Shown piece by piece: positions 3,785 to 64,000 of a DNA stretch of 64,000 nucleotides. This DNA is from an uncultured Gemmatimonadaceae bacterium. Its GTDB lineage: Bacteria > Gemmatimonadota > Gemmatimonadetes > Gemmatimonadales > GWC2-71-9. Numbering within the stretch: position 1 is the stretch's first letter; each line of letters starts with the position of its first letter. Under the pieces are notes generated by a model that did no database searches, was not told where the DNA came from, and saw only the letters and a program-made list of their open reading frames with translations. The stretch lies in assembly GCA_964642475.1 (NCBI GenBank), contig CAZXRC010000005.1:68859-132858 (forward strand), given 5' to 3'. The translations under genes were made by a program, and so were the position numbers.

Positions 3785-6574
3785 ATGACCCCAGAACGCG
3801 ATGAGCTGCAACGGTTGCGGACCGAATGCGATCGGCTCCGCGCCCGGGTCGCCGAACTGGAGCGGGCGGATGACAATGCCCGCCGCGAGTCTGGCGAAGC
3901 CCCCTCCACCTCCGTCTCCCTGTTCGACTCCGCCCTGAACGCGACCAACGATGGGGTGCTCATCGTGGGACCGCGGGGCCGCATCACCTACTTCAATCAG
4001 GCGTTCCTGACCATGTGGCGGGTGCCGGCGACGCTGGCCGAAGCCGGCGATGACGACGCCATGCTGGCCTGGGTCCTGGATCAACTGGCCGATCCCGAGG
4101 GATTCCTGGCCAAAGTCCGCGAGCTGTATGCCCAGCCCGAGGCCGACAGCGCGGACCTGCTGGAATTCCGGGACAGCCGGTGCTTCGAGCGCCGCTCCCA
4201 GCCTCAACGCCTGAACGGGGCCGTGATCGGGCGGGTCTGGTGGTTCCGGGACATCACCGAGCGCCGACGGATGGAGCGGGAGCTGGCGCAGTCCGAGGAA
4301 CGGTTCGCCCACATCTTCCAGGCCAGTCCGTTCTCCATTCTCCTGGCGACCTATCCCGAAGGGCGGATCGTGGCGGTCAACGAAGCCTTCCTGCGGCTGT
4401 TTGGCTTCGAACGGGAAGATGTGATCGGCCGGACCACCGGTGAAATCGGTCTGTGGAGCAACCCGGAGGACCGCGAGATCATGCTCGGTCGGCTGGGCGC
4501 CGAGGGGGCCGTGAGCGGAATGGAGTTCACCTTCCGGTCCCGCCACGGTGACCCCAAGGTCCTGCTCCTGTCGGTGGAGCTGGTGCAGATGCAGGGCCAG
4601 TGGCACGCCCTGGCCATGTCGATCGACATCACCGAACGCCGCCGGGTCGAGGACGTGGTACGGCGCCAGGGCACCCTCCTGCAGGCCATCATGAACGGAA
4701 CCAGCGATGCGGTCTTCATCAAGGACCGCGAGGGCCGCTACGAGCTGATCAATCCGGCGGGCGCCCTGATGCTGGGTCATCCCGTCTCGGCGGTGCTGGG
4801 ACGGACCGACCGGGAGCTGGTCCCCCCCGAAGCCGCGGCCGAATTCCAGCTGAGCGACGAGCGGGTCATGTCCGCCGGCGAGCCTCGCCTCCGGGAAGAA
4901 GTCGCCGTCATCGGCGGCCGCGACTTCGTCTTCCTGTCGCAGAAGGCTCCCTGGCGTGATGGCGAGGGTCGGGTGATCGGCCTGGTCGGAATTTCCCGGG
5001 ATATCACCGAGCGCAAGCGGACCGAGGCGGCCCTCCGGGAATCCGAGTCACGGTACCGGACCCTGTTCGAGGCCATCGGCGAGACCATCTTCCTGCTTTC
5101 GCCCGAGGGCACCTTTCAGGCCCTCAACCGGGCCTTCGAGACCACCACCGGCTGGGAGCGCACCGACTGGCTGGGACGATCGTTCCTCGAGCTGCTTCAC
5201 CCGGGCGATCACGACCGGGCCCGTGACATGTTCCGCCGAGCCGCCCTAGGCGAAAAGGGCCTGGTCCAGGACTTCAAGGCGCGGCGCAAGGCGGGGGACT
5301 TCCTGGTCGCGGAGTGCAGCGCCATGCATCGCCTGATCCAGGGCGACCGGGTGATCGGCTTCCTTGGCACCGCGCGGGATGTGACCCAGCAACGCCGGCT
5401 GGAGGATGGACTCCGCCAGGCCCAGAAACTGGAAGCCCTCGGAACGCTGGCGGGAGGGATTGCCCACGACTTCAACAACATCCTCACGGCGATCATGGCC
5501 CACGCCGGATGGCTGCAGGAGGAGCTCGCCGGTGAGGCCCGGGTGGCGGAGGATCTGCAGGGCATCCAGGGCGCCACAGCCCGCGCCAAGTCCCTGGTAC
5601 GGCAGATCCTCACGTTCAGCCGCCAGCAACCGGAAGAGCGACGGGTCATCGCCCTCGAGCCGGTGGTGCGCGAGGCCGTTTCGCTGCTGCGCGCCACCCT
5701 CCCGGCCACGATCGAAATCCGCACCGACCTCGGCGAGGCCGACGCCCTCATCCTGGCCGACCCGACCCAGGTGCACCAGGTCATCGTCAATCTCGGCACC
5801 AATGCGGTGCACGCCATGCGGGCAGCCGGTGGCATCCTCCGCCTCAGCCAAACGATCGTCGACGGGACCAGTGGCGGGACCCTGCCCGCGACGCTGCCCC
5901 CGGGGCGATACGTCCGGTTGACGGTCAGCGATACCGGGCACGGCATGTCGGTCGAGACCCTGCGGCGCATCTTCGATCCGTTCTTCACCACCAAGGCCCC
6001 CGCGGAGGGCACCGGCCTGGGGATGGCCGTCGTACACGGCATCATGCGAAGCCACGAGGGAGACATCGGTATCCACAGCCGTCCCGGCGAGGGGACCGAG
6101 GTGGTCCTCCACTTCCCGCTGGTGGAGCGCCAGGAGGCGAGCCCGGATTCCGGAATCCCCCCGGTCCCGAGGGGAGCCGGCGAGCGGATCCTGCTGGTGG
6201 ACGACGAATCCGAGCTGGTTCGGCTGGGAACCCGGATGCTGACCCAGCTGGGGTATCGGGTCAGCGGGTATGCCTCCCCGCAGGAGGCGCTGGCCGCATT
6301 CCGAGGGCGGCCGGAGGACGTTGACCTGGTGGTGTCGGACCTGACCATGCCGGGGATCACGGGTGCGGACCTGGCGAGGGAAGTGCTGTCCCTCCGCCCC
6401 GAGCTGCCGGTGCTCCTGACCTCCGGGTACCTCGGGGCCCTGACGCCCGAGGCCATGGAGGAGATCGGGATCCGCGAACTGCTGGTCAAGCCCTTCGAAT
6501 CCCGGACCCTGGGGGAGGCGATCTGGCGCTGTCTCCGCGGAGACGGCCCGCGGGCCGCTCCGGCGGTATCATGA
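3785..6574 (+). CDS. Multi-PAS (4x) hybrid sensor histidine kinase
   Basis: Probable start MTPERDEL at 3785 (track ORF from 3524 looks over-extended). Four PAS/PAC units, H-box AGGIAHDFNN, HATPase GTGLG, receiver LVVSDLTMP. Confidence 0.9.
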   Translation: MTPERDELQRLRTECDRLRARVAELERADDNARRESGEAPSTSVSLFDSALNATNDGVLIVGPRGRITYFNQAFLTMWRVPATLAEAGDDDAMLAWVLDQLADPEGFLAKVRELYAQPEADSADLLEFRDSRCFERRSQPQRLNGAVIGRVWWFRDITERRRMERELAQSEERFAHIFQASPFSILLATYPEGRIVAVNEAFLRLFGFEREDVIGRTTGEIGLWSNPEDREIMLGRLGAEGAVSGMEFTFRSRHGDPKVLLLSVELVQMQGQWHALAMSIDITERRRVEDVVRRQGTLLQAIMNGTSDAVFIKDREGRYELINPAGALMLGHPVSAVLGRTDRELVPPEAAAEFQLSDERVMSAGEPRLREEVAVIGGRDFVFLSQKAPWRDGEGRVIGLVGISRDITERKRTEAALRESESRYRTLFEAIGETIFLLSPEGTFQALNRAFETTTGWERTDWLGRSFLELLHPGDHDRARDMFRRAALGEKGLVQDFKARRKAGDFLVAECSAMHRLIQGDRVIGFLGTARDVTQQRRLEDGLRQAQKLEALGTLAGGIAHDFNNILTAIMAHAGWLQEELAGEARVAEDLQGIQGATARAKSLVRQILTFSRQQPEERRVIALEPVVREAVSLLRATLPATIEIRTDLGEADALILADPTQVHQVIVNLGTNAVHAMRAAGGILRLSQTIVDGTSGGTLPATLPPGRYVRLTVSDTGHGMSVETLRRIFDPFFTTKAPAEGTGLGMAVVHGIMRSHEGDIGIHSRPGEGTEVVLHFPLVERQEASPDSGIPPVPRGAGERILLVDDESELVRLGTRMLTQLGYRVSGYASPQEALAAFRGRPEDVDLVVSDLTMPGITGADLAREVLSLRPELPVLLTSGYLGALTPEAMEEIGIRELLVKPFESRTLGEAIWRCLRGDGPRAAPAVS

Positions 6575-8668: not shown

Positions 8669-9388
8669 GTGACGACGTTTCAGCTGGCCTACGCGGCCAC
8701 CGCCGCCGCCACCCTTTCATTGCTTTTCCCGATTTGCGCCGGGCTCTGGCGCTGGCGGGCGATTTCCCCGGCAGCGCAGGTGTTCGTCATCGCCCTAGTC
8801 ATTGAACTTGGTGCCGAGTTGACCGAGTTTGTGCTGGCAACGGCGCAGTCGAACAACCACTGGGTGGCCTACGCGCTGACGCCGATCGAATCCACCCTGA
8901 TCGTCGCGGCGCTGGCACTCTGGCAGGACGATGCGACCTCGCGCCGGTGGATGCTGCGGGCCGCGCCGGTCATGCTCCTGGCCTGGTTCCCCCCGCTGCT
9001 CGGCTGGGAAAACCGCGCGAGTTTCAGTCTCGGAACCGATACGCTGCAGGCAGCGGTGTGCCTGGCGCTCGCGGCCTACACCGTCATCCGGCGCTGGATC
9101 AGCGCCCCGGAAGGGGTCGGCCCCCAGGACTGGGCCTATATGGGAGCCGGCGTCATGTTGTATTCCGGCACCTACGCGCTGGTGAACCCGCTGAACCATT
9201 ATCTGCTCGGCGCGTCCATCAGCACCGCTCTGACCGTGCTGATCGTTCGCTCCGGGTTCCAGGTCCTGGCCAACACGCTCTATTACCTCGGAGTCCGATG
9301 CTCACGCAGCCAGCTCAGCTCTGGGCATTCTTCCTCGCCGTCACGCTGGTGGTCACCATTCTCGTGGTGGCCGTCGCCGCCTCGCTGA
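8669..9388 (+). CDS. Hypothetical integral membrane protein (about 7 TM)
   Basis: GTG start at 8669 in the 8543..9388 frame. Seven hydrophobic segments and an SNNHWV motif before TM3. Confidence 0.75.
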   Translation: MTTFQLAYAATAAATLSLLFPICAGLWRWRAISPAAQVFVIALVIELGAELTEFVLATAQSNNHWVAYALTPIESTLIVAALALWQDDATSRRWMLRAAPVMLLAWFPPLLGWENRASFSLGTDTLQAAVCLALAAYTVIRRWISAPEGVGPQDWAYMGAGVMLYSGTYALVNPLNHYLLGASISTALTVLIVRSGFQVLANTLYYLGVRCSRSQLSSGHSSSPSRWWSPFSWWPSPPR

Positions 9389-10074
9389 TCGTCACGCAAC
9401 GCAAGCTGGCCCGCGCCGCCAGGGCGTTCGCCCTCGGAGTGCTGAAAGCCTCCGAGGACGAGCGGCGGCGGGTGGCGCGGGAACTGCACGACGATGTCGG
9501 ACAACGGATCGGCGGCCTGTGCCAGCGACTCGAAACGCTGCAGGAACGGCTGCGCACCACCGAGGTCGACCCGCCCCTCATCACGGCCACCGTAGCGGTC
9601 GGCGATGGGCTCCGGGAGGTCGCGGCGACCGTCCGGCAGTTGGCCCACAACATGCACCCCTCGGTGCTCGAACACCTGGGGCTGGGTGCCGCACTTCAAT
9701 CCCTGGCCCGCGATGTCACGGCCGAATCCGGGCTCCACGTCACGGCACGCATCGAGGCCGGCACGGATGAGCTGTCGCCCGAGGCGAGCCTGGCGCTGTA
9801 TCGCGTTTGTCAGGAGGCGTTGCGCAACTGCATCAAGCACGCCCGGGCCACCAGCGCGACCGTCGAACTCTCCCGGGTTGGAACGATCATCCGGCTGTCG
9901 GTATCGGATAACGGGGTCGGGTTTGCTCCCGGGCAGGCCGCCGGCGACGCCGGCTTGGGCCTGGTGAGCCTGCGCGAGCGCATCGGTCTGCTGAAGGGGC
10001 GGTTCGAGGTCGTCTCGCAACCGGGACACGGTACAATGGTCCTCACCGAGGTATCTGAAGGAATGACGCAATGA
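9298..10074 (+). CDS. NarX/HisKA_3-type sensor histidine kinase with single N-terminal TM
   Basis: Start MLTQPAQLWAFF (GGAG upstream). ERRRVARELHDDVGQ H-box, EALRNCIKHA N-box, DNGVGF and GLGL G-boxes. Confidence 0.9.
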   Translation: MLTQPAQLWAFFLAVTLVVTILVVAVAASLIVTQRKLARAARAFALGVLKASEDERRRVARELHDDVGQRIGGLCQRLETLQERLRTTEVDPPLITATVAVGDGLREVAATVRQLAHNMHPSVLEHLGLGAALQSLARDVTAESGLHVTARIEAGTDELSPEASLALYRVCQEALRNCIKHARATSATVELSRVGTIIRLSVSDNGVGFAPGQAAGDAGLGLVSLRERIGLLKGRFEVVSQPGHGTMVLTEVSEGMTQ

Positions 10075-10811
10075 GTCACACGCCCACGGTCGTAATCGCC
10101 GACGACCATCCGTTCGTCTGTGACGGCCTCCGCGCCAATCTCGAGCCGGCGTGCTCGGTGGTCGGGGTGACCCATCATGGCGAGGATGTGCTCGGCCTGA
10201 TCGATAGCCTGCGCCCGGAACTCCTCCTGCTCGACCTCATGCTTCCCGGTCGCGGCGGCCCCTGGCTCATTCGGGAAATCAAGAGTCGGCCGTCCCCGCC
10301 TCGGATCCTGATCGTCACGATGCACGCCGATCCGGCCTACGCCGAGGTATGTCTCAGGGCGGGAGCGGATGGGTATCTCCTCAAGACGGCCCGCGCCTCC
10401 GAGCTCCGGGAAGCGGTCCGGGAAACGCTGGCCGGCCGCCCCTTCGTTTCGCCCGAGGTGCACGCGGGCCCGGGCCAGCCTCCCCACCAGTGGGAGTCCA
10501 TGGGCCACCTCCGGCACGACGAGTGGGTGCGGCTCAAGCAGCTCACGCCGAGGCAACTGCAGGTCCTGGCCCTGCTTGGCCGCGGAAGCAGCAGCACCGA
10601 GATCGGCGCCGCGCTGGGGGTGTCCGTGAAGGCGGTGGAGTATCACCGCTCGGCGATCCGCCGCACGCTGGGGATCGGCACCACCGCCGGCCTGTACCGC
10701 GTGGCAACGCTCTATCTCGAAACGACGGAGGCGGCAGCCGGAATGATCCCCGGCTCGGGCCCGCTGGCCGGGACCGCTCCCGATTCCCCAGACCAATCGG
10801 CCGACCGGTAG
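10071..10811 (+). CDS. NarL/LuxR-family response regulator
   Basis: REC (ADDH...LLDLMLP) plus LuxR HTH (LTPRQLQVLALLGRG...SVKAVEYHRSAIRRTLG). Confidence 0.92.
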   Translation: MSHTPTVVIADDHPFVCDGLRANLEPACSVVGVTHHGEDVLGLIDSLRPELLLLDLMLPGRGGPWLIREIKSRPSPPRILIVTMHADPAYAEVCLRAGADGYLLKTARASELREAVRETLAGRPFVSPEVHAGPGQPPHQWESMGHLRHDEWVRLKQLTPRQLQVLALLGRGSSSTEIGAALGVSVKAVEYHRSAIRRTLGIGTTAGLYRVATLYLETTEAAAGMIPGSGPLAGTAPDSPDQSADR

Positions 10812-11069
10812 CCCATGGCCGTAGCCCTAAAGGAGTGGAACCCCGGATCCGCCCTGATGTCGAGAGGACTCGGCGTGTCCTTTTCGTACCACTGTCCGAG
10901 CGGTGACGCTACAATGGCAACCCCTAGCATTCTCTCATAAGAGATTGTGAGACAATGAGATAGGCGCCTCGCTCAGGACTTCCAGAATTCCCATTCCGCA
11001 TGGCGCTGAACTTGCGGCCTCAGGATTTCGGTGGTGTCGGTCGATCCTCTGAGGCGGGAGGTTCCGCAT

Positions 11070-11156
11070 ATGATCAAAGCCTTGTTCACGATGATCCTGT
11101 TGAGCAACGATCACGCAGCTCGCCTGGTCGAGCGCCTTCACCGACTCAAAGCCTAG
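11070..11156 (+). CDS. Possible 28-aa small ORF
   Basis: GGGAGG RBS then ATG. Translates MIKALFTMILLSNDHAARLVERLHRLKA. Below the track length cutoff. Confidence 0.3.
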   Translation: MIKALFTMILLSNDHAARLVERLHRLKA

Positions 11157-54196: not shown

Positions 54197-56158
54197 ATGG
54201 CGACCACACCGACCAGCTCAGTCCAGGGCGTCGTCAGCGGCATCAACTACCGGGACATCGTCGACCAGATCATCGCCGTCGACAAGCAGCCGGCCGACCG
54301 GCTGCGGGCCCAGGCGACCAGGCTGCAGGCCCGGCAGAGCGCCATCGCCAGCTACAAGGGGTTGCTGCAGGCGCTGCAGCAGAAGGCCACCGCGCTGCGC
54401 GAGGGTACCGCGTTCGGGAAAATGAGCGCGACCGCCACGATCGCCGCCGGCAGCCGTGCCCTGGTGTCGGCCAGCGCCTCGTCGCTGGCGGTGCCGGCCA
54501 GCTACCAGGTGGGCGTCACGGCGCTGGCGCAGCAGCAGAAGCTGGGCAGCACCGTCCAGCCGGGGAGTTCGGGCCCGGCCGGCGTGGCGGGCAGCTTCAC
54601 CCTCAACGGAGTGAGCGTGTCGGTGTTGGCGACCGATTCGCTCGCCGACATCCGCGACAAGATCAACGCCGGCAACAGCGGCAGCACCCCCAGCGGAGTG
54701 GCCGCCAGCGTGATCACGACCGGCGCGGGACAGAACCGACTCGTGCTCACCAGCGTCAAGGCCGGCACCCAGGGCATGACCCTGGCCGATACCAGCGGCA
54801 ACGCGCTCCAGACCCTCGGGTTCCTGAGCGCGCCGACCACCCTCAACAACACCGCCATCCTGACGGCCGGCCAGGACGCGGCCTTCACCGTGGATGGGGT
54901 GGCCTTCACCGCGACCAGCAACGTGATCACCACCGCGATCGAGGGCGTCACCCTCAGCCTCACCTCCGCCGAGGTCGGCGGGGTGACCTCGGTGACCGTG
55001 GCCCGCTCGGGGAGCGACGCGCAGGCGGCCATGCAGGGCTTCGTCGACGCCTACAATGCGGTGGTGGGGTTCATTCAGCAGCAGCAGACCGCGCCGCGCG
55101 ACGGCACCATCTCGCTGCCGCCGCTCTACGGCGACAGCCTGCTGCGCCTGCCGAAGACCGCGCTGCCCCAGACTCTGCTCTCGACCATCAGCGGCGCCGC
55201 CGCCGATCTCTCCACCGCCGGCATGGCAGGGCTCTCCCTGGGCCGCGACGGAAAGCTGTCGCTCGACACCACCAAGTTCAGCGCCGCCTTTACCGACCGG
55301 CAGGCCGACCTCCAGAAGCTGTTCCAGCAGAGCGGCAGCAGCACCGGCCCATCCACGTACTACCTGAGCTCCGGCTCCCGGACGCCGGCGGGCACCTACC
55401 CGGTCAACATCACCCAGGCCGCGACCCAGACCACCGTCGCGGGCTCCGGCCTCGGAGGCGGCTACACCGATGATGCCACCGGCGACACGATGACCGTGAC
55501 GGATACCGCGACTAGGCGCTCCGCCACCATCACGCTGACCAACGGCATGACCTCGGCCGCCATCGCGGCGGCGCTCAATACCGCCTTCGGGACCCAGGGG
55601 CTCGGCCTGGTAGCCACCGAGGCCGGCGGCGAACTCACCCTGACGCAGGGCCAATGGGGCAGCAGCGCCGGCATCACCGTCGCGTACGGCGCCGGGGGCG
55701 CGCTCGGCAACGTGCCGGTGGCCGCCGGCACCTACACCAACGGCCTCGACGTCGCCGGCACCATCAACGGCCAGGCGGCGACCGGGTCGGGACAGTCCCT
55801 GGTGGCGGCGTCCGGCAACCCCGCCGCCGGTCTCGCGGTGCGGTATACCGGGGCGACCACGGGTGACGGTGGCAACGTCACGGTCTCGCTGGGAACCGCC
55901 TCCCTGCTCGAGCGCCAGGTGCAGCAGTACACCGACTTCAGCACCGGCACCCTGGATACCAGGAGCACCGCCCTCAGCGACCAGGTCAAGAGTCTGAACG
56001 AGCGGGCCGATCGCATCGAGGGCCAGCTGGCCGTGCGCAGGGAGAGCCTGCTCCGCCAGTACGCCAGCATGGAAGAGGCGTTGGGGCGGCTGCAGTCCCA
56101 GTCGCAGTCCGTCATCGCGGTGCTGAACTCGTTGACCTCTACTTCAGGGAAGAACTAG
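54197..56158 (+). CDS. fliD: Filament cap FliD
   Basis: GVVSGINYRDIVDQI, GQDAAFTVDG, SNVITTAIEGVTL, FVDAYN, LLRQYASMEEAL. Confidence 0.95.
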   Translation: MATTPTSSVQGVVSGINYRDIVDQIIAVDKQPADRLRAQATRLQARQSAIASYKGLLQALQQKATALREGTAFGKMSATATIAAGSRALVSASASSLAVPASYQVGVTALAQQQKLGSTVQPGSSGPAGVAGSFTLNGVSVSVLATDSLADIRDKINAGNSGSTPSGVAASVITTGAGQNRLVLTSVKAGTQGMTLADTSGNALQTLGFLSAPTTLNNTAILTAGQDAAFTVDGVAFTATSNVITTAIEGVTLSLTSAEVGGVTSVTVARSGSDAQAAMQGFVDAYNAVVGFIQQQQTAPRDGTISLPPLYGDSLLRLPKTALPQTLLSTISGAAADLSTAGMAGLSLGRDGKLSLDTTKFSAAFTDRQADLQKLFQQSGSSTGPSTYYLSSGSRTPAGTYPVNITQAATQTTVAGSGLGGGYTDDATGDTMTVTDTATRRSATITLTNGMTSAAIAAALNTAFGTQGLGLVATEAGGELTLTQGQWGSSAGITVAYGAGGALGNVPVAAGTYTNGLDVAGTINGQAATGSGQSLVAASGNPAAGLAVRYTGATTGDGGNVTVSLGTASLLERQVQQYTDFSTGTLDTRSTALSDQVKSLNERADRIEGQLAVRRESLLRQYASMEEALGRLQSQSQSVIAVLNSLTSTSGKN

Positions 56159-56560
56159 ATGAGCCACGCAGCGACGAAGTATCAGGCCATGGACGTGCAG
56201 AGCATGTCCGGCCCCCGGCTGGTGGTGTTCCTGTATTCCCACCTGGTGAGCGCGCTCCGCCAGGGGGAGCGGGCCATCGAGGCAAGGGACATCGAGGGCC
56301 GCAGTAAGGCCCTGTGCCGCGCCCGCGATATCGTGTACGAACTGGCCTTCTCGCTCGACCGCGCCAACGGCGGCGAGATCGCCGAGAACCTCGCGCAGCT
56401 CTACGAGTACTTCATCCACGAGATTACCCAGGCCGACCTGCACCCGGACAAGGCGCGCCTGGTCCGCCTGCTGGAGATGGTCACCTCGCTGCACCAGGCG
56501 TGGGAACAGGCGGCGGTACTGGTGGCGGAGACGCCCGTCGCCGCGGCCGTGAACGCGTGA
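56159..56560 (+). CDS. fliS: Flagellin chaperone FliS
   Basis: YQ...MSGPRLVVFLY, GEIAENLAQLYEY, LHQAW. Confidence 0.95.
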   Translation: MSHAATKYQAMDVQSMSGPRLVVFLYSHLVSALRQGERAIEARDIEGRSKALCRARDIVYELAFSLDRANGGEIAENLAQLYEYFIHEITQADLHPDKARLVRLLEMVTSLHQAWEQAAVLVAETPVAAAVNA

Positions 56561-57006
56561 GCGATCTCCCCGTCCCGCTCTCCGAGCGCGCCTGCGCCCT
56601 GCTGACCGCTCAGCGCACCGCGGTGGCACGCTACGCCGCGCTGCTCGAGGGGCAGCGCGCCGCGCTGCGGGCCGAAGACCCCGAGTTGCTCGCCGACCTC
56701 GCCAGCCAGGCGGAGGCGGTGGTCCATGGCCTCGAAACGGCCTGCCGTCATCTCACGGTCCTGCGCACGCCCCTCCAGGACGCCGCCGGACCCCGTCGCG
56801 ACCAGGCGGATGATCTCCTCACCGCGCTGTCCGCGGAGCTGGAACGAGCATTCGAGGTCGTCCGGGTGATCGCGGAGCAGGCCCATGATCGACGGCAGGC
56901 GATCGTTCGTTCCATCGTGGAACTTGAGCGATACCCCGCTGCCGCGGCGCCGGCCGGCTACACCCCCACCTCCGCCGAACCGGCATTTCTCGACCGCTGC
57001 GGCTAG
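56557..57006 (+). CDS. Helical FlgN/FliT-like protein
   Basis: GTG start overlapping the fliS stop. Y..LLE.Q..AL..ED pattern. Ends FLDRCG. Confidence 0.65.
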   Translation: MSDLPVPLSERACALLTAQRTAVARYAALLEGQRAALRAEDPELLADLASQAEAVVHGLETACRHLTVLRTPLQDAAGPRRDQADDLLTALSAELERAFEVVRVIAEQAHDRRQAIVRSIVELERYPAAAAPAGYTPTSAEPAFLDRCG

Positions 57007-57014
57007 GGCTACCC

Positions 57015-57042
57015 TCAAGTTCTGCCGGGTCCTGGACGATAC
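57015..57042 (+). promoter_or_regulatory. Putative sigma28 promoter of the 80-aa gene
   Basis: TCAAG-N15-GACGATAC. Confidence 0.6.
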
Positions 57043-57085
57043 TTCCTAGCAACGGCCACATCGGTTCGAGAAGCCGGAGGAGCGT

Positions 57086-57328
57086 ATGTCGGTTCACGCA
57101 TTGGAAGGTGTCACGCCGGCGGCGCCGGCCAGTCGGGTCCGGGAAACGGTCAGGCCCGCGGAGAGTCCCGCGGCGCCGGCCCAGGACCGTGCGGTCCTGT
57201 CGGAAGAGGCCAGGATCCTGGCCGCCAGGTTGGAAGCGGCGGAGAAGGCCAACAAGCTGCATTTGTCGCCCAAGGAGTTGGCGGCGTTGGTCCAGGGCAC
57301 GGAATCCCCGCGTCACGGTGGGCAGTGA
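57086..57328 (+). CDS. Small hypothetical protein with FlgM-like D-x-x-x-L-S motif
   Basis: Strong GGAGG RBS, QDRAVLSEEARIL. Confidence 0.7.
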   Translation: MSVHALEGVTPAAPASRVRETVRPAESPAAPAQDRAVLSEEARILAARLEAAEKANKLHLSPKELAALVQGTESPRHGGQ

Positions 57329-57343
57329 GCGGGGCGATCCGGC

Positions 57344-57371
57344 TCAAGTCCCGGGGCATACGGGCCGACAG
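57344..57371 (+). promoter_or_regulatory. Putative sigma28 promoter of flgM
   Basis: TCAAG-N15-GCCGACAG. Confidence 0.65.
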
Positions 57372-57388
57372 TCCTAGCAATTGAGGAA

Positions 57389-57739
57389 TTGACCATGTCC
57401 ATCGATCCCATGAAGTCGGCAGGCGCCGGCGGCGCAGGCGGGTCCCGCATCGACCAGGCACCCGGCAACCAGTCCGCCCGGCAGTCGAGCCAGGTCCAGC
57501 GGGCGGCGGGCGAGCCGAAGAGCGCGGATGCCGGCGCCGGCGACGACAAGGTGCAACTCTCGGCCCGGGCCCGTGAATCGGGGGCGACCGACCGGACCAG
57601 CGCCTCGGGCCTTGGCGCCGAGCGGCTGCAGGAGATTCTCAAGCGCGTTACCACCGGGTACTACGACAGTCCCCAGGTGCTGGATCGGGTGGCCGAGCGA
57701 GTCAAGGATGACCTGACCGGGTCCGACCCGGTCGTGTAA
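57389..57739 (+). CDS. flgM: Anti-sigma28 factor FlgM
   Basis: DKVQLSARAR, RLQEILKRVTTGYY (R...IK..I..G.Y motif). Confidence 0.82.
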   Translation: MTMSIDPMKSAGAGGAGGSRIDQAPGNQSARQSSQVQRAAGEPKSADAGAGDDKVQLSARARESGATDRTSASGLGAERLQEILKRVTTGYYDSPQVLDRVAERVKDDLTGSDPVV

Positions 57740-57764
57740 GCACCCTGAGCGTACGGAGCAGACA

Positions 57765-58136
57765 ATGAAGTGCCTGGTCGTCGACGATTCCGCCACCATG
57801 CGCCGGATCGTGGTGAATGCTCTCAAGAGCATCGGATACGACAACGTGGTGGAAGCGGGCGACGGCAGCGATGCCCTGACGAAGTGTGACGGGTCCATCG
57901 AGCTGGTGATCACCGACTGGAACATGCCGGTGATGGGCGGACTCGAGTTCGTGAAGGGACTGCGGAGCAATCCCCAGCATGCCAAGACGCCGATTCTGAT
58001 GGTCACCACCCGCAGCGTGAAGGAAGACATCATGCAGGCGGTGGAGGCCGGCGTTTCGAGCTATATCCTCAAGCCGTTCACGCCCCAGGTGCTCAAGGAG
58101 AAGATCGACCAGATCCTCTCTGTTGGGTCGGCCTGA
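57765..58136 (+). CDS. cheY: Chemotaxis response regulator CheY
   Basis: LVVDDSATMRRIV, ITDWNMPVMGG, YILKPFTPQVLKEKI. Confidence 0.93.
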   Translation: MKCLVVDDSATMRRIVVNALKSIGYDNVVEAGDGSDALTKCDGSIELVITDWNMPVMGGLEFVKGLRSNPQHAKTPILMVTTRSVKEDIMQAVEAGVSSYILKPFTPQVLKEKIDQILSVGSA

Positions 58137-58153
58137 TTCTCTCGGAGGGTGTC

Positions 58154-58891
58154 ATGGATGTCGCCCTGGTCCGAGCGCTGGCGGCCGAGCTCGAGAGTAC
58201 GCTCGGGCTGACCACCGAGCTGCTCGAAGAACTCAAGAATCTGCGGGACCAATGGCCCCGGCTGGGGAAGCTGCCCCGGATCGCGGCCAAGCTCGCCGCC
58301 CAGCCCAATCTGGGCCAGCTCCCCGGCATTCTGCTCCGTGCGCACGCCGACATCACCGAGATCCTGGGCGGGATCCGCCTGACCCGCGAGGCCATCGAGG
58401 CCCATGCGGTGGAGCGGATCCGCGACACCCAGAACCGTCTCAGCAACGTCACCAGCACCACCGAGAGCGCCACCATCGAGCTGATGAACGGGCTCGACCG
58501 TTCGATCGAGCTGGTGAATTCGCTTGAGCAGCAGGCCAACCACAAGGCCAGCGCCGAAGGATTCCAGCAGCTCCGCGACGAGGTGAGCGCCCTCTACAAT
58601 CACCTGCAGTTCCAGGATATCACCTCGCAGCAGCTCCAGGGCGTCACCCATTCGCTGCTGGAACTCGAGGCCCGGGTGGCCACGGTAGCGGCCCTGTTCG
58701 ATCGGAACGCCGAAGCGGGAGGGCAGGAGCAGCTGCTCCCCATGTTCAGCTCCGGCTCCTCGGCCCACCTGGCCTTCAACCCGGACGCGACCATGTCGCG
58801 CTCCCGGGCGGACCAGACCATGGTCGACGCGGCCTTCGAGGGAGCCCGGAATGGTCAGGCCGATCCTGCCGGCCGCATCGCCGGGGGCTGA
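58154..58891 (+). CDS. cheZ: CheZ-like phosphatase
   Basis: TESATIELMN and LQFQDITSQQL (D-x3-Q catalytic motif). Directly after cheY. Confidence 0.75.
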   Translation: MDVALVRALAAELESTLGLTTELLEELKNLRDQWPRLGKLPRIAAKLAAQPNLGQLPGILLRAHADITEILGGIRLTREAIEAHAVERIRDTQNRLSNVTSTTESATIELMNGLDRSIELVNSLEQQANHKASAEGFQQLRDEVSALYNHLQFQDITSQQLQGVTHSLLELEARVATVAALFDRNAEAGGQEQLLPMFSSGSSAHLAFNPDATMSRSRADQTMVDAAFEGARNGQADPAGRIAGG

Positions 58892-60194
58892 GGCGGCGGA
58901 GCCGCCCGGCCACCCCGCCCTGTCCGACAGCATCCAGCGCGACAAGCTGGCGCTGATCGGGCAGATGGCCTCCTCCGTCGCCCACGAGCTGAGCAATCCG
59001 CTGGCGACCATCGTCGCCAGCGCTCAGAGCATCCTGGCCTTCTGGCCCCGCGGGGGCGGCCTGACCGGCGGCTCCTCGCCCGCCCCGGCCGAGTATCTGA
59101 ACCAGGGCATCCCCCTTCGCCAGCTCCGGGAGGACCTGGAGCTGATCCTGGTCGAGGCCCGCCGGGCGGGCGAGATCGTCCACGGACTCCTGGCCTCGGC
59201 CCGGCAGCATCCCCCTGAGTGGTGTATCTGCTCCGTGGCCGACGTGGTGCGCCGGACGGTGGCGCTCTCGCGCCATCACCTCAAGCTGCACAACATCGCG
59301 CTCCAGTCGCCCCGGTTCGATCCGCTCGAAGGGTATCCCCTCTGGAGCCGGATCCGGGGCGACGCCAATCAGCTGCAGCAGGTGCTCCTCAATCTGATCA
59401 TCAACGCCCAGCAGGCGATTGTGGCCGGCCGGGGCTACGGGGCGGTCCGTATCACCCTCGCGCCCGATGGGGCCGAGCGGATCGTCCTCGCGGTGGAGGA
59501 TGACGGCCCCGGGGTGCCGGACGAGCTGCGCGATACGATTTTCCAGGCGTTCTATACCACCAAGCCGGCCGGCAAGGGCACCGGCTTGGGCCTCTCGATC
59601 GTGGCCGGCATCGTCCAGGCCCACGGCGGCACCATCGCGGTGACCAACCGGGAGGGGGGCGGGGCCCGGTTTGCGGTGACCCTGCCTTCGCTGGGGGCCA
59701 CCGAGCGGCCCTCGGCCGACGGCGGTCCCGTCGACGCCTCGCCCGCCCGGATCGCTCACGAGCTCCCCGCTCCGCCTCAGGCGGGCGAGAGCGGCCTGCT
59801 CCGGGTCCTGCTCGTCGACGACGAGGCCGGCGTGCGGCGCAGCATCAGCCGCCTGCTCCGTCGCTCGGGCTTCTCCGTGACCGAAGCGGCCGGCGGCGAG
59901 GCGGCGCTCGAGCTCCTCCGTCAGAGCCGGTTCGACGTGGTGCTCTCGGATCTCCGGATGCCGGGGATCTCGGGCGAGGAGTTCTTCGAACGGATCCGGC
60001 GCGAGTTCCCCGCGATGACCGGCCGGGTGGTGTTCACCAGCGGCGACACCCTCCGGGAGGAGACCCAGAGCTTCCTCAAGAAGTGCGGCTGTCCCGCGCT
60101 GCAGAAGCCCTACGAGCTTTCCGAGCTGGTCCGGGTGCTGCGCTCGCTGCAGCCGGAGGCCCCCGTCACCCCCGCACGCCGGGCGCTGGCCTGA
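58851..60194 (+). CDS. Sensor-less hybrid histidine kinase
   Basis: SVAHELSNPL, NAQQA, DDGPG, GTGLGL, receiver VLSDLRMP. No input domain. Confidence 0.9.
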   Translation: MVRPILPAASPGAEAAEPPGHPALSDSIQRDKLALIGQMASSVAHELSNPLATIVASAQSILAFWPRGGGLTGGSSPAPAEYLNQGIPLRQLREDLELILVEARRAGEIVHGLLASARQHPPEWCICSVADVVRRTVALSRHHLKLHNIALQSPRFDPLEGYPLWSRIRGDANQLQQVLLNLIINAQQAIVAGRGYGAVRITLAPDGAERIVLAVEDDGPGVPDELRDTIFQAFYTTKPAGKGTGLGLSIVAGIVQAHGGTIAVTNREGGGARFAVTLPSLGATERPSADGGPVDASPARIAHELPAPPQAGESGLLRVLLVDDEAGVRRSISRLLRRSGFSVTEAAGGEAALELLRQSRFDVVLSDLRMPGISGEEFFERIRREFPAMTGRVVFTSGDTLREETQSFLKKCGCPALQKPYELSELVRVLRSLQPEAPVTPARRALA

Positions 60195-60198
60195 TCCG

Positions 60199-61788
60199 GT
60201 GCGCCCCCCGTTCCGCGCCGACCTGCGGCTGGATCCCTACCCGATGCCCGCCATGGATTCGTCGACGACCTCCCCGGCGGACCGGATGGTGCTGGCCGCG
60301 CTCCCCGATGCCGTGCTGGTGCTCGACCCGTTAGGGCTGGTACGGGATGCCAACCCCGCCGCCGAGCGTCTCTTTGGCCGGCCCCTGGAAGCTCTTCGAA
60401 GCGCGGCGATCGATCGGCTGCTGACGCTGCCGGATCATGCCGCCCTCGGGGGGCTGCTCCGGTCCGGCCGCTCGAACGGGTCCGACCGCTGGCCCGGCTC
60501 GCGAGGACGCACCCTCGATGGCCAGGAATTCGACTGCGACATCGCCGCCGCACCGCTCTCGGGCCCGGGGGCCCCGGGCCGATGGGTGGTGACCGTGACG
60601 CCTACCGGGGGCCGCGATTTCGCGCTGGTGCAGCGCCAGGAGTCGGCCAAGATGTCGGCGGTGGCCACGCTGGCCGCCGGCATCGCCAACGACTTCAACA
60701 ACGCGCTCGCCGCGATCAGCGGGAGCATCGAGGCGGCCCGCCTCCGCATCATCTCCCAGGACCGGGTCCCGCCCCGCGAGCTGATCGAAGTCAAGGAGGC
60801 CACCCGCGGCGCCGCCCGGCTGGTCCGCCGGCTGCTCAACTTCGCCCGGCCCGCGCCCGGATTGCGCCAGCCGATCGATCCCGCTCGGATCGTGGAGGAG
60901 GCCTGTCAGGTCCTCCGACGGGACCTCGATCCCCGGATCTCCCTGGTGACGCGACTCGACCACGGCGACTGGCGGATCCGGGCCGACCTGGAGCAGCTCA
61001 CCGACCTGCTGGTGAGCCTGGGGCACAACGCCCTCGAAGCGATGCCCCATGGCGGCGTCCTCACTCTCGCCACCGCCCGGGCCGCGGCCGGGGCCTGGGG
61101 CGCCCCGGCGGCCATCGCCAGCCGCGAGTTCGTGCGCATCGAGGTGCGGGACACCGGCGAAGGGATTCCTCCCGAGGTTCTGCCCCGGATCTTCGAGCCG
61201 TTCTTTACCACCAAGGCCCCGGGACGGGGATCGGGGCTGGGACTGGCGACCGCCTATGCGACCCTGCGCCAGCACGAGGGCGGGATCACCGTGGAGAGCG
61301 CCCCCGGCGCCGGCAGCCTGTTCCAGATTTATCTCCCGCGTACGCATGAGCCCGCCGGCGAGGCCCAACCGCCCCGGGGCATCGAGCCGGGCACCGGCAG
61401 CGGCACCATTCTGCTGGTGGACGATGAGGCCTCGGTGCGCCGACCGCTGCGGCAGGGCCTGGGCCTGTGCGGGTACACGGTAGTCGAGGCCCGCGACGGC
61501 CTGGAGGCGCTCCGGCTGCACGGCGACGGGAGTGCCCGATTCGACCTGGTGATCCTCGATGTCAGGATGCCGGGCATGTCGGGGTGGGATGTCCTGAGCG
61601 AGCTCAAGCGGAGGACCCCGTCGCTCCCGGTGATCCTGACCAGTGGTTATTCGCAGGAAGACAGTACCCCGCCGCCCAATGGCTCGGCCCCGGATGCTTA
61701 CCTCCCCAAGCCGTACGACCTGGCCGAACTCACCGCGCAGGTGCGACGGCTGTTGCCACCGCCCCGGGAGCCGGGTCATTCATCGTGA
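60199..61788 (+). CDS. PAS hybrid kinase-like protein lacking the phospho-His
   Basis: PAS, H-box reads [10 protein letters not shown], intact HATPase and receiver (ILDVRMP). Start may be 60244. Confidence 0.85.
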
Positions 61789-62321
61789 TGGTCCTCCTGG
61801 TCGACGATGAGCCGGTGTGTCGCCGGATCCTCCGGCGCCTGCTGTCCCGCTTTCCCGAAGTCGAAACCAGGGAGGCGGAAGATGGACAGGCGGCCTGGAC
61901 CATGCTCGGTGAGCTCCGGCCCGCCCTGATCCTCTGCGACCTGCAGATGCCGGTGATGGACGGCGTGACCCTGATCGGCAGGATCCGGGAGCACCCGGTC
62001 CTGCGCTCGGTACCGATCGTGGTCACCTCGGCCAGCAAAGACCGGGAGACGCTGCTGCAACTCAAGGACCTCGTACTGCTCGACTATCTGCTGAAACCCT
62101 TCGACCTGGTCCAGACCTTCGCCCGCCTGGAAAGGCACCTCGAGCCGCTGCTGCGGACCTACCGGGCGGCGCAGGCCGCCGCTCAGGCCGAAGCCCCGGC
62201 GGCTGCGGCGAGGGTCCAGGTCTTCACCCCGCCGGCCGCACCGGCGGCGCCGGCAGATGCAGGAGCGGCGGCGCCGGTGGCACAATCGCCGGGGGACGGC
62301 GAGGCCACACCAGCGGCGTAG
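61785..62321 (+). CDS. Single-domain response regulator with Ala/Pro tail
   Basis: Start overlaps the upstream stop. [20 protein letters not shown]. Confidence 0.88.
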
Positions 62322-62367
62322 GTCGGCCGCCGTTGCTCCCCTCGGCCGCGTGGCTTACCCTCCAGCC

Positions 62368-62757
62368 ATGCGGCGTACTGTTTCCAGTGGGGCCAGGTGG
62401 GAACCGGTGGTGGGCTACTGTCGGGCGGTGCGCGTGGGAAACACGGTCCATGTGGCCGGGACCACCGCGATCGGGCCCGATGGCGCGGTGGTTGGTCCGG
62501 GGGATCCCTACGCCCAGGCGGTGCGGATCTTCCGGATCATCGAGGAGGCGCTGAAGGAGGTCGGCGCCGAACTGCGGCACGTGGTGCGCACCCGGATGTT
62601 CGTGACCGACATCAGCCAATGGGAAGCGGTCGGCCGGGCCCACGGCGAATTCTTCCGCGACATCCGCCCCGCCGCTACGATGGTGGAAGTGCGCCGCCTC
62701 ATCGACCCCGCCCTCCTGGTCGAAATCGAGGTGGATGCGGTCATCGACTCCGACTGA
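62368..62757 (+). CDS. RidA/YjgF/YER057c family protein
   Basis: Start [49 protein letters not shown]. Confidence 0.92.
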
Positions 62758-63117
62758 CTGCCATTCGATCACCGCGGCCCCGCGGGCGTGAGGGCAGTGA
62801 CGCTGCGTCGAGGTGCCCCCGGGACGTGAAGCAACTGTTATCCAGATCCGCCGGAACTGGTTAGCTCCTTTCGGGCCGAATTCACCCCCCTTTCAGCCGT
62901 CCCCCCCTACTGTATCCGTCCAGTGTGGACCCGACTGCGGGTTCACGCGGGCCCTTGGCAAGGCGGTGACGCATCGACTGGTCCCGTGTTTGCGGGGGTC
63001 GTCAGAGACCTGCGAGACGTACCGATGTACACCCGCCCGTGCCGGACCCTTCGCTTCTCAGCCGTTTCGAGTCGTACCTCATCCGTTGCCGGAAGCAGGG
63101 ATTCCGGCGGGAGAATC

Positions 63118-64000
63118 ATGCCCATGTCGCCAGGCACCCTCCGCGGGCGCCGGCTCGTCGCCGCCGTGCTGACCGGGTTCGTCCTGACCGGCATCGCCTG
63201 CGGTGATGACAACGGCACCGCCCCAGTCCGATCCACGTTCGAGGACGTCATCGCCAGCGGCGGCGACCTCCCCGAGGTCGCCGAGCACAGCCTCGTGACC
63301 GACTCGCTCAAGAGCACCGAGCTGCGGGGCAACGAGAACTGGTCGTGCGTTACGCGGACCTATGATGTCACCCGGGCCCCCGAAGACTTTCCCCTGTTCG
63401 ACCCCAACTCCGAGATCATCTATCCGGGCAACCTGCTCCAGGGCAAGAGCCTGACCCAGGCCACGCCGGAGCCGATTCCGGTGCGCCGGGGCGGCGGGAC
63501 CATCGTGGTGACGCTCAACAACGGGGCCACCGGCGGTGTCAGCCGGACGGTGCCGGTCGTGTCGCTGGGCTCGATCTATGACGCGGCCAACGACATCATC
63601 GGCACCAATCCGGGGAACCTCCCGGCCCGGTTCAACTTCGCCACCGAGCGGGTGGAATCCGACAAGCAGCTCTCGGTGGCCACCAACGCCAGCTGGGAGG
63701 CGTACAGCCTCTGGAAGATGAAGGGCGGCCTCTCGGTGTCGGTGAACACCCGGCGCAACCACAACAAGTTCCTGGTCAAGCTCAACCAGGCGTTCTACAC
63801 GGTGGCCTTCGAGCTGCCCACCTCGCCGGAGCAGATGTTCGCCGACGACGTGACCCCGGACGACCTCAAGCCGTTCGTCGGCTCGGGCAACCCCGCCACC
63901 TTCATCTCGTCAGTCACCTTCGGCCGGATCTTCTACCTGCTGATCGAATCGACCCAGAGCGCCGACAGCATCGCCGCCTCGATCAACCTCTCGTTCAGCG
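63118..64000 (+). CDS. Thiol-activated cytolysin family (CDC-like) probable lipoprotein, 3'-truncated
   Basis: My translation: signal peptide ending TGIA-C, IIYPGNLLQG, QAFYTV, NPATFISSVTFGR. Open to the window end, so absent from the ORF track. Confidence 0.85.
   Translation, partial: MPMSPGTLRGRRLVAAVLTGFVLTGIACGDDNGTAPVRSTFEDVIASGGDLPEVAEHSLVTDSLKSTELRGNENWSCVTRTYDVTRAPEDFPLFDPNSEIIYPGNLLQGKSLTQATPEPIPVRRGGGTIVVTLNNGATGGVSRTVPVVSLGSIYDAANDIIGTNPGNLPARFNFATERVESDKQLSVATNASWEAYSLWKMKGGLSVSVNTRRNHNKFLVKLNQAFYTVAFELPTSPEQMFADDVTPDDLKPFVGSGNPATFISSVTFGRIFYLLIESTQSADSIAASINLSFS

Follow-up and report, generated by a model that had tools for sequence, protein, structure and literature searches.

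Can an open reading frame (ORF) that is cut by the end of a sequence be recognised as part of a toxin gene, and does such a toxin act alone or with a partner? This question is raised by a stretch of 64,000 nucleotides (nt) from an uncultured Gemmatimonadaceae bacterium (contig CAZXRC010000005.1, positions 68,859 to 132,858 of the forward strand; hereafter the window). Its end, from position 63118 to 64000, had been read from the letters alone as the start of a lipoprotein resembling the cholesterol-dependent cytolysins, possibly one of a pair. Here we report that the cut falls within a real gene, carried by an uncultured Gemmatimonadales bacterium of water-treatment habitats, and that the encoded protein is an ordinary, uncharacterised member of the known CDC-like (CDCL) toxin family. 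Its cytolysin core is modelled as complete and is followed by a predicted lectin-like jelly roll, and the protein probably works as a single-gene pore-forming toxin.

A gene cut by the window end

Translation of window positions 63118–64000 (+) gives 294 codons without a stop, within a stop-to-stop frame that begins at 62830. The features originally noted, namely the frame open to the window end, the segment IYPGNLLQG, the pair F-Y and the triplet F-G-R, were all confirmed in the sequence, and the frame had been missed by the ORF track for the simple reason that ORFs running off the window end go unlisted. The length of the open frame is not significant in itself, because the local G+C content is about 68–70%; for example, a 227-residue antisense ORF, typical of a high-G+C genome and taken to be spurious, overlaps the gene at 63079–63762 (−). 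That the gene is real follows from homology, both to Pfam family PF01289 and to solved cytolysin structures, and from its identity to a protein on record. A database search with a close ortholog recovered this protein, P0020 (619 residues; NCBI contig of 162,718 bp), which agrees with the product of the window at 292 of 292 residues counted from the second Met.

Two start codons are candidates, ATG at 63118 and ATG at 63124, both preceded by GGAGA at 63110–63114, and the public gene call for P0020 uses the second. The window thus contains the 5′ 47% of the gene (63118–64000, +), or 294 of 621 codons (619 if translation starts at 63124), as supported by the open frame, the PF01289 match, the identity to P0020 and metagenome contigs from a sand filter and a bioreactor that match the gene and extend 2.2 kb and 10.5 kb beyond position 64000. 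The existence of full-length P0020 and its identity to the window product indicate that the gene is complete in its genome and runs for ~980 nt past the window end. The space just beyond 64000, where a partner or immunity gene had been anticipated, is therefore filled by the remaining 327 codons of the same gene.

We considered whether the frame might be what is left of a truncated or decayed gene, or have arisen by chance in a genome rich in G+C. Although the window end cuts the frame, long spurious ORFs are common in this DNA and one ortholog (locus L001/L008) looks frameshifted, an identical full-length product of 619 residues is on record, dozens of genomes carry intact orthologs of 604–650 residues and the metagenome contigs run past position 64000. 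The frameshifted copy is limited to one assembly, with sequencing error as its likely cause, and we regard the explanation by decay or chance as refuted. The L001/L008 copy (9283–11134 in Gemmatimonadales MFD09964.bin.1.247, contig_40596) has at least one frameshift near residue 205 and a C-terminal domain that is garbled over ~50 residues; we think it likely that these defects are sequencing or assembly errors and not gene decay.

A further relative, 90% identical (L002; GCA_035455405.1, contig DATIFF010000371.1), has a contig that breaks inside the same gene, at 5539, only 12 bp past the position matching the window end, and a protein near-identical in full length to its product, P0018, is encoded on another contig. 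A breakpoint shared by the two assemblies was rejected in favour of coincidence or an assembly break in L002. The window's own contig spans 162,718 bp, so that the window cut is arbitrary.

The product begins with a type II (lipoprotein) signal peptide (SpII; 63118–63201, +), read from the sequence as MPMSPGTLRGRRLVAAVLTGFVLTGIA followed by Cys (TGC, 63199–63201) in a G-I-A-C lipobox. The product start is MPMSPGTLRGRRLVAAVLTGFVLTGIAC/GDDN, with G-D-D-N directly after the lipidated Cys. In the signal, RGRR forms a positively charged n-region, a hydrophobic core follows, and the Cys occupies the lipobox position. In an alignment of 109 full-length family members (A3), this Cys is invariant (109/109), which bears out the lipoprotein signal suspected at the outset, and in 89% of the members an acidic residue (Asp or Glu) occurs at least once between positions +2 and +6. 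An SpII signal of this kind, which is characteristic of the two-component CDCLs of Bacteroidota, is present in the window protein as well.

The cytolysin core and its C-terminal domain

The window fragment matches the Pfam profile PF01289 (Thiol_cytolysin) with 78.9 bits (E 4e-22) over profile positions 42–259 of 353, and full-length P0020 matches it with 110.2 bits over positions 44–333, against a cutoff of 25 bits. The matches lie so far above the threshold that the CDC-like identity proposed in the original prediction stands. Compared with the sequences of solved structures, the fragment reaches E 4e-17 with intermedilysin and perfringolysin O, and a close ortholog gives E values down to 2e-25 with solved cytolysins, in matches that end at the D3/D2 boundary. 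Similarity of the fragment to the CDC-like proteins of Elizabethkingia is only E ~1e-3, and the range including the ortholog is 1e-3 to 1e-5. A search of NCBIfam with the window fragment yielded no match.

Several motifs of the family can be placed along the core. The domain 1 segment IYPGNLLQG (63418–63444, +) is conserved in the family, with its G, Q and G invariant. The first half of the F/Y-F/Y-Xn-YGR motif, F-Y, is encoded at 63793–63798 (+; F224 and Y225 of P0020) and is preceded by the invariant Gln222, and the second half, at 63919–63927 (+; F266, G267 and R268), reads F-G-R, with Phe replacing Tyr. A Gly-Gly pair at the start of the alpha-beta loop (G321–G322 of P0020) is encoded past the window end. 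Among the residues invariant in 109/109 sequences are the lipobox Cys, Cys75, Cys381, Q222, G267, R268, G321 and G322. The aromatic residue before GR is Tyr in 93 of the 109 sequences and Phe in 16, and the 12 closest Gemmatimonadales sequences are among the latter. The replacement that had been pointed out is thus real, and by this alignment FGR is a conservative, clade-specific variant of the published motif, whose definition already permits F or Y at the other aromatic positions (PMC7527733).

An AlphaFold2 model of P0020 had a mean predicted local distance difference test score (pLDDT) of 85.4 and a predicted template modelling score of 0.65. When this model was searched with Foldseek, the top 29 hits were all cytolysins, the best being intermedilysin, perfringolysin O, pneumolysin, streptolysin O and listeriolysin O (E 7e-23 to 1e-18), followed by the CDCL structures 8g33, 9ccq, 6xd4 and 8g32 (E 6e-14 to 1e-11). 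The model shows a complete cytolysin D1–D3 module, in which the bent core β-sheet is flanked by both helical bundles, at residues 180–199 and 280–295. The frame accordingly does not stop just past the window edge, an outcome that would have spoken against a cytolysin, and instead yields a 619-residue product with a complete D1–D3 fold in the model.

Helical bundle 1, the predicted transmembrane hairpin 1, is encoded at 63649–63753 (+; P0020 residues ~176–210, with helices at 180–186 and 191–199), and the start of helical bundle 2, the predicted transmembrane hairpin 2, at 63961–64000 (+; residues 280–293 of a helix spanning 280–295), where it is cut by the window end. In a family-averaged hydropathy profile, 31 of the 40 strongest period-2 positions fall in the bundle regions or in the strand preceding the first bundle. 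The peaks of period-2 amphipathicity in bundle 1, at residues 180–190 and 201–206, are among the strongest in the profile, and a further peak lies in bundle 2 at residues 283–291 (signal region 283–301). Such a signal is as expected for segments that refold into membrane-spanning β-hairpins.

Cys75 (codon at 63346–63348) and Cys381, encoded past the window end, lie on neighbouring long strands of domain 2 in the model, which suggests a conserved Cys75–Cys381 disulfide near the junction with the C-terminal domain.

The C-terminal domain of P0020 (residues ~385–619, ~235 residues) is all-β, is modelled with a pLDDT of ~95–98 and is conserved throughout the family. No Pfam match to cytolysin domain 4 (PF17440) was obtained in P0020 or its orthologs. 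Of 21 family C-termini that were aligned, 8 match Laminin_G_3 (PF13385), with a best E value of 9e-10, and a match to this family is precomputed for several homologs; the C-terminus of the ortholog at L005 has an E value of 0.0022, under the cutoff. The fold matches of the domain, at E ~1e-7, are to the HC domains of botulinum and tetanus neurotoxins and to the lectin domain of trans-sialidase, and a search with a profile of the domain against the sequences of solved structures gave nothing significant. Where cytolysins have domain 4, which binds cholesterol, we thus read a LamG/concanavalin-like jelly roll, an assignment that is solid at the fold level in the model and, for this particular protein, sub-threshold by sequence. 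In a whole-library profile search with the family, about 51 of the best 150 matches extend through the C-terminal domain and the others cover only D1–D3. Because most of these 150 combine D1–D3 with other C-termini, the pore module is, as far as sequence comparison goes, one that combines with exchangeable binding domains.

The protein therefore shares much with the cholesterol-dependent cytolysins (perfringolysin O, intermedilysin, pneumolysin and streptolysin O; PF01289 plus PF17440), which are its best matches by sequence (E 4e-17 to 2e-25) and by fold (E 7e-23 to 1e-18). Common to both are the D1–D3 module with its two helical bundles, FY...(Y/F)GR and the GG pair, and both are, apparently, organised as single genes. 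However, the window protein lacks domain 4, with its undecapeptide (ECTGLAWEWWR) and Thr-Leu cholesterol-recognition pair, and is predicted to have the LamG-like jelly roll instead; it carries an SpII signal whereas the cytolysins carry a Sec signal, and its producer is a diderm environmental member of the Gemmatimonadales and not a Gram-positive pathogen. As it is without domain 4, it falls outside the definition of a cholesterol-dependent cytolysin.

As defined by Evans et al. 2020 (PMC7527733), CDCLs have a D1–D3-like fold, the motif, the GG pair, an SpII signal and a C-terminus other than D4, and they come from non-pathogenic producers that belong mostly to the FCB group; the window protein falls within this definition alongside CDC-like proteins such as the Elizabethkingia anophelis CDCL (PDB 6xd4, 8g33). 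Its sequence similarity to the Elizabethkingia proteins is nevertheless marginal (E 1e-3 to 1e-5) and its fold match to them is weaker than that to true cytolysins. The C-terminal domains also differ, that of the window family being LamG/ConA-like and the Elizabethkingia CDCL D4 having no known structural relatives (PMC7527733).

Gene number and mode of action

To place the gene in its family, we draw on a genome scan that returned 160 related stretches, of which 80 loci were kept for analysis. These loci cover Gemmatimonadota, Zixibacteria, Krumholzibacteriota, Calditrichota, Ignavibacteriales and many Bacteroidota (including Aquimarina, Flagellimonas, Winogradskyella, Saprospiraceae and Balneolaceae), and nearly all of their products have 600–690 residues. 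Among the carriers, Aquimarina, Flagellimonas, Winogradskyella and Saonia are available in culture. The closest relatives are from Gemmatimonadales genome bins, at 83–90% identity, and the profile search of the whole library found 5439 cluster representatives at E ≤ 1e-3, of which 1335 reach E ≤ 1e-30. Relatives are publicly annotated as 'thiol-activated cytolysin family protein'. A literature search found no paper on the LamG-bearing clade or its gene pair, nor one linking the family to Gemmatimonadota, and the CDCL papers and their supplements do not mention Gemmatimonadota, Aquimarina or LamG. Metagenomes from sand filters, bioreactors, activated sludge and biofilters contain this DNA, in agreement with the environmental origin that had been assumed.

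No second CDCL gene was found within ±10 kb in the loci of Gemmatimonadota (L003–L008), Zixibacteria, Krumholzibacteriota and Calditrichota, and the 64-kb window likewise contains a single CDCL gene. The paired-CDCL model, carried over from Bacteroidota in the original prediction, is thus unsupported, with one such gene per locus in the Gemmatimonadota relatives. Two loci, L004 and L005 (MAG STL-GEM5, contigs of 38,671 and 524,978 bp), were considered as paralogs in one genome; their contigs are collinear, with 97.7% identity over 20.9 kb, and represent assembly redundancy, as of redundant strain or haplotype contigs.

In several Bacteroidota loci, a second CDC-like gene lies beside the LamG-type gene (L021, 1797–4220; L024, 2871–5405; L035, 7610–9388; L037, 7159–9639; L038, 12059–14584; L039, 14104–16104; L051, 4406–6262; and L065, 7843–9582). 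This second gene is either divergent, with an open frame of ~590–845 codons, or a paralog of similar size, and these double loci may be examples of the published 'pairs'.

Taken with the features of the protein, these observations lead us to consider it probable that the gene on its own makes up a pore-forming toxin, lipid-anchored or released, whose receptor is not a sterol. While the motifs are seen in the sequence and the fold and the domain swap in the model, secretion, receptor, pore and target are what we infer. The lipidated protein would be displayed on the cell surface or released, and its jelly-roll domain would bind a non-sterol receptor on the target membrane, most plausibly a glycan or glycolipid. 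The D1–D3 core would then drive oligomerisation of the monomers, and the two helical bundles would refold to amphipathic β-hairpins to form a large β-barrel pore. By analogy with the Bacteroides CDCLs, for which the Bacteroides fragilis system provides a precedent for an antibacterial role (PMC11169675; PMC11952106), the target could be competing bacteria; alternatively, it could be eukaryotic grazers. Because the relatives have no second CDCL gene nearby, there is probably a single pore-forming species and not a long/short pair. Metatranscriptome contigs that lie on the gene, described below, add support.

Several points weigh against this interpretation. Pore formation, receptor and target are all inferred, and the helical-bundle regions on which the pore would depend are modelled with low confidence (pLDDT 53–61). 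The motif Tyr is Phe in the window protein, and P0020 itself has no Pfam LamG match at E ≤ 1, so that the LamG call draws on homologs and the model. The survey of the gene's own genome covers the 64-kb window, and a second CDCL gene could lie farther downstream or elsewhere. The characterised CDCLs of Bacteroidota require two components and proteolytic activation (PMC11169675), and pore formation is so far known from such pairs and not from a single-gene CDCL.

The last of these points bear on the alternative of a complement-like CDCL toxin with two components, as in Bacteroides and Elizabethkingia, in which the protein would be the long component that binds the membrane, a short CDCL partner would be encoded elsewhere and a protease on the target cell would bring about activation. 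The only functionally characterised CDCLs work in this way (PMC11169675), and a second CDCL gene does lie next door in the Bacteroidota double loci listed above. Yet none occurs within ±10 kb in the relatives from Gemmatimonadota, Zixibacteria, Krumholzibacteriota and Calditrichota or in the 64 kb upstream, and even among CDCL-bearing Bacteroidota genomes a published survey found a single CDCL gene in most, namely 821 of 1578. In sequence, the D1–D3 core moreover resembles the single-component cytolysins, with E values of 1e-17 to 1e-25, far more closely than the Elizabethkingia CDCL-long and CDCL-short proteins (1e-3 to 1e-5), and we consider a two-component toxin unlikely. A non-lytic surface protein, a lectin or adhesin that kept a cytolysin-like scaffold and lost pore formation, has the change of Tyr to Phe in the motif in its favour, and the LamG-like domain suggests carbohydrate or protein binding that is possibly a function in itself. 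This explanation seems to us slightly less probable again, as the elements of the pore mechanism (Q222, GR, the GG pair and the period-2 bundles) are kept in 109 sequences from several phyla; the exchange of Tyr for Phe is conservative, and the published motif permits F or Y at the other aromatic positions. The single-gene toxin therefore remains the interpretation that we prefer.

Neighbouring genes and wider meaning

The CDCL gene adjoins, on the same strand, a gene for another lipoprotein in nearly all informative non-Bacteroidota loci, in five phyla. This neighbour has ~580–750 residues and consists of an optional Big_5 domain, a PKD domain, the start of a DUF1565-type β-helix and a long glycine-rich region. 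Its lipobox Cys is invariant, as are dozens of the glycines. It lies downstream of the CDCL gene in Gemmatimonadota (L001/L008, L003, L004/L005, L006 and L007) and upstream of it in L010–L014, L016–L020, L022 and L028; representative positions are 11901–13652 in L005, from ~2310 in L003, 11844–13658 in L006, 12109–14220 in L007, 7685–9925 in L010 and 7852–9897 in L017. The neighbour is absent from L015 and from every Bacteroidota locus of the same CDCL family. The next gene of the Gemmatimonadota relatives thus encodes a conserved lipoprotein of a kind that is not CDC-like.

The system of Bacteroides fragilis, CDCL-long and CDCL-short with BcdI (PMC11169675; PMC11952106), offers a parallel, as its CDCLs belong to the same superfamily, have a lipoprotein signal and adjoin a lipoprotein gene, as in the relatives studied here. 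In contrast to that system, no CDCL-short gene was found in the relatives' loci or in the window, and no link between the neighbour lipoprotein of the relatives and BcdI could be made. Nor did the sequence allow a site of proteolytic cleavage to be assigned. A role of the neighbour as an immunity factor or accessory is suggestive, and its presence in the window's genome would be expected from synteny alone.

It is conceivable, though we are doubtful, that the CDCL and the neighbour lipoprotein form an obligate pair, which would be compatible with a single pore-forming species. The neighbour would then be an immunity factor that protects the producer itself, as BcdI or CD59 do, or else an accessory: by docking on the target's surface polysaccharide or degrading it, it would give the pore-former access to the membrane. 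Adjacency on the same strand across five phyla despite swapped gene order argues for such a pair, as do the invariant lipobox Cys and many invariant glycines of the neighbour, its PKD, Big_5 and DUF1565-type β-helix domains, and the fact that the immunity protein of the Bacteroides CDCLs is likewise an adjacent surface lipoprotein. However, the neighbour is missing from L015 and all Bacteroidota loci of the family, it is not seen in the window, downstream of which it is placed by synteny only, and in the reverse test a CDCL gene adjoined a gene of the neighbour family in only 2 of 80 metagenome loci, the two closest. The result of the reverse test shows that the neighbour family is much broader than the pairing, and it lowered our confidence in an obligate two-gene system. 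The LamG-bearing CDCL and its neighbour might, equally tentatively, constitute a previously undescribed two-gene cassette in non-Bacteroidota FCB-group phyla (Gemmatimonadota, Zixibacteria, Krumholzibacteriota, Calditrichota and Ignavibacteriales), in which the non-CDCL partner would confer CD59- or BcdI-like self-protection or act as an accessory that binds or degrades surface glycans. If true, the cassette would add a third type of organisation to those of the single-component cytolysins and the long/short CDCL pairs.

On the other side of the gene, a run of genes at 54197–62757, all on the + strand, encodes FliD, FliS, a CheY-like receiver, a weak CheZ-like protein (27.5 bits, under the cutoff), two hybrid histidine kinase/receiver proteins, a single-domain response regulator and a RidA/L-PSP protein. 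In relatives, too, the ortholog is found beside these kinase and regulator genes. Judged by these flanking genes, the locus is a conserved chromosomal position and not a mobile element, in which it differs from the system of B. fragilis. In relatives, a PhzF-family gene lies between the RidA and CDCL genes (3556–4353 in L002; 8879–9721 in L005), and no remnant of it was detected by tblastn in the intergenic stretch of the window (62758–63117, 360 nt). This stretch was considered as the site of a regulatory RNA or promoter, and nothing credible was found there: it gave no sigma-70-like promoter, no terminator and no credible Rfam match.

In a wastewater metatranscriptome, two small contigs of ~99% identity lie at 62939–63224 (286 nt) and 63763–63976, and the upstream RidA gene has a depth of 0 in the same data. 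The coverage marks 62939–63117 (+) as the probable 5′ leader of a transcript. The library was prepared with oligo-dT and may have carried over DNA, and these contigs thus speak only weakly for transcription of the gene from a leader of its own, which would measure at least 180 nt.

With regard to annotation, the gene is ordinary, since standard tools already name its relatives. Its interest lies in the clade to which it belongs, as functional study has so far been limited to the two-component CDCL systems of Bacteroidota. This clade is large and conserved (the 1335 cluster representatives at E ≤ 1e-30, with about one third of the best 150 matches sharing the full architecture), and it is marked by a core unusually near to that of the classical cytolysins and by the exchange of the membrane-binding domain for a lectin-like jelly roll. 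It therefore lends itself to the questions of how one pore-forming engine is retargeted by its receptor domains and whether a single-gene CDCL suffices as a toxin. Since sand filters, bioreactors and activated sludge are where the producers live, the protein could influence how bacteria compete, or resist grazing, in engineered water systems.

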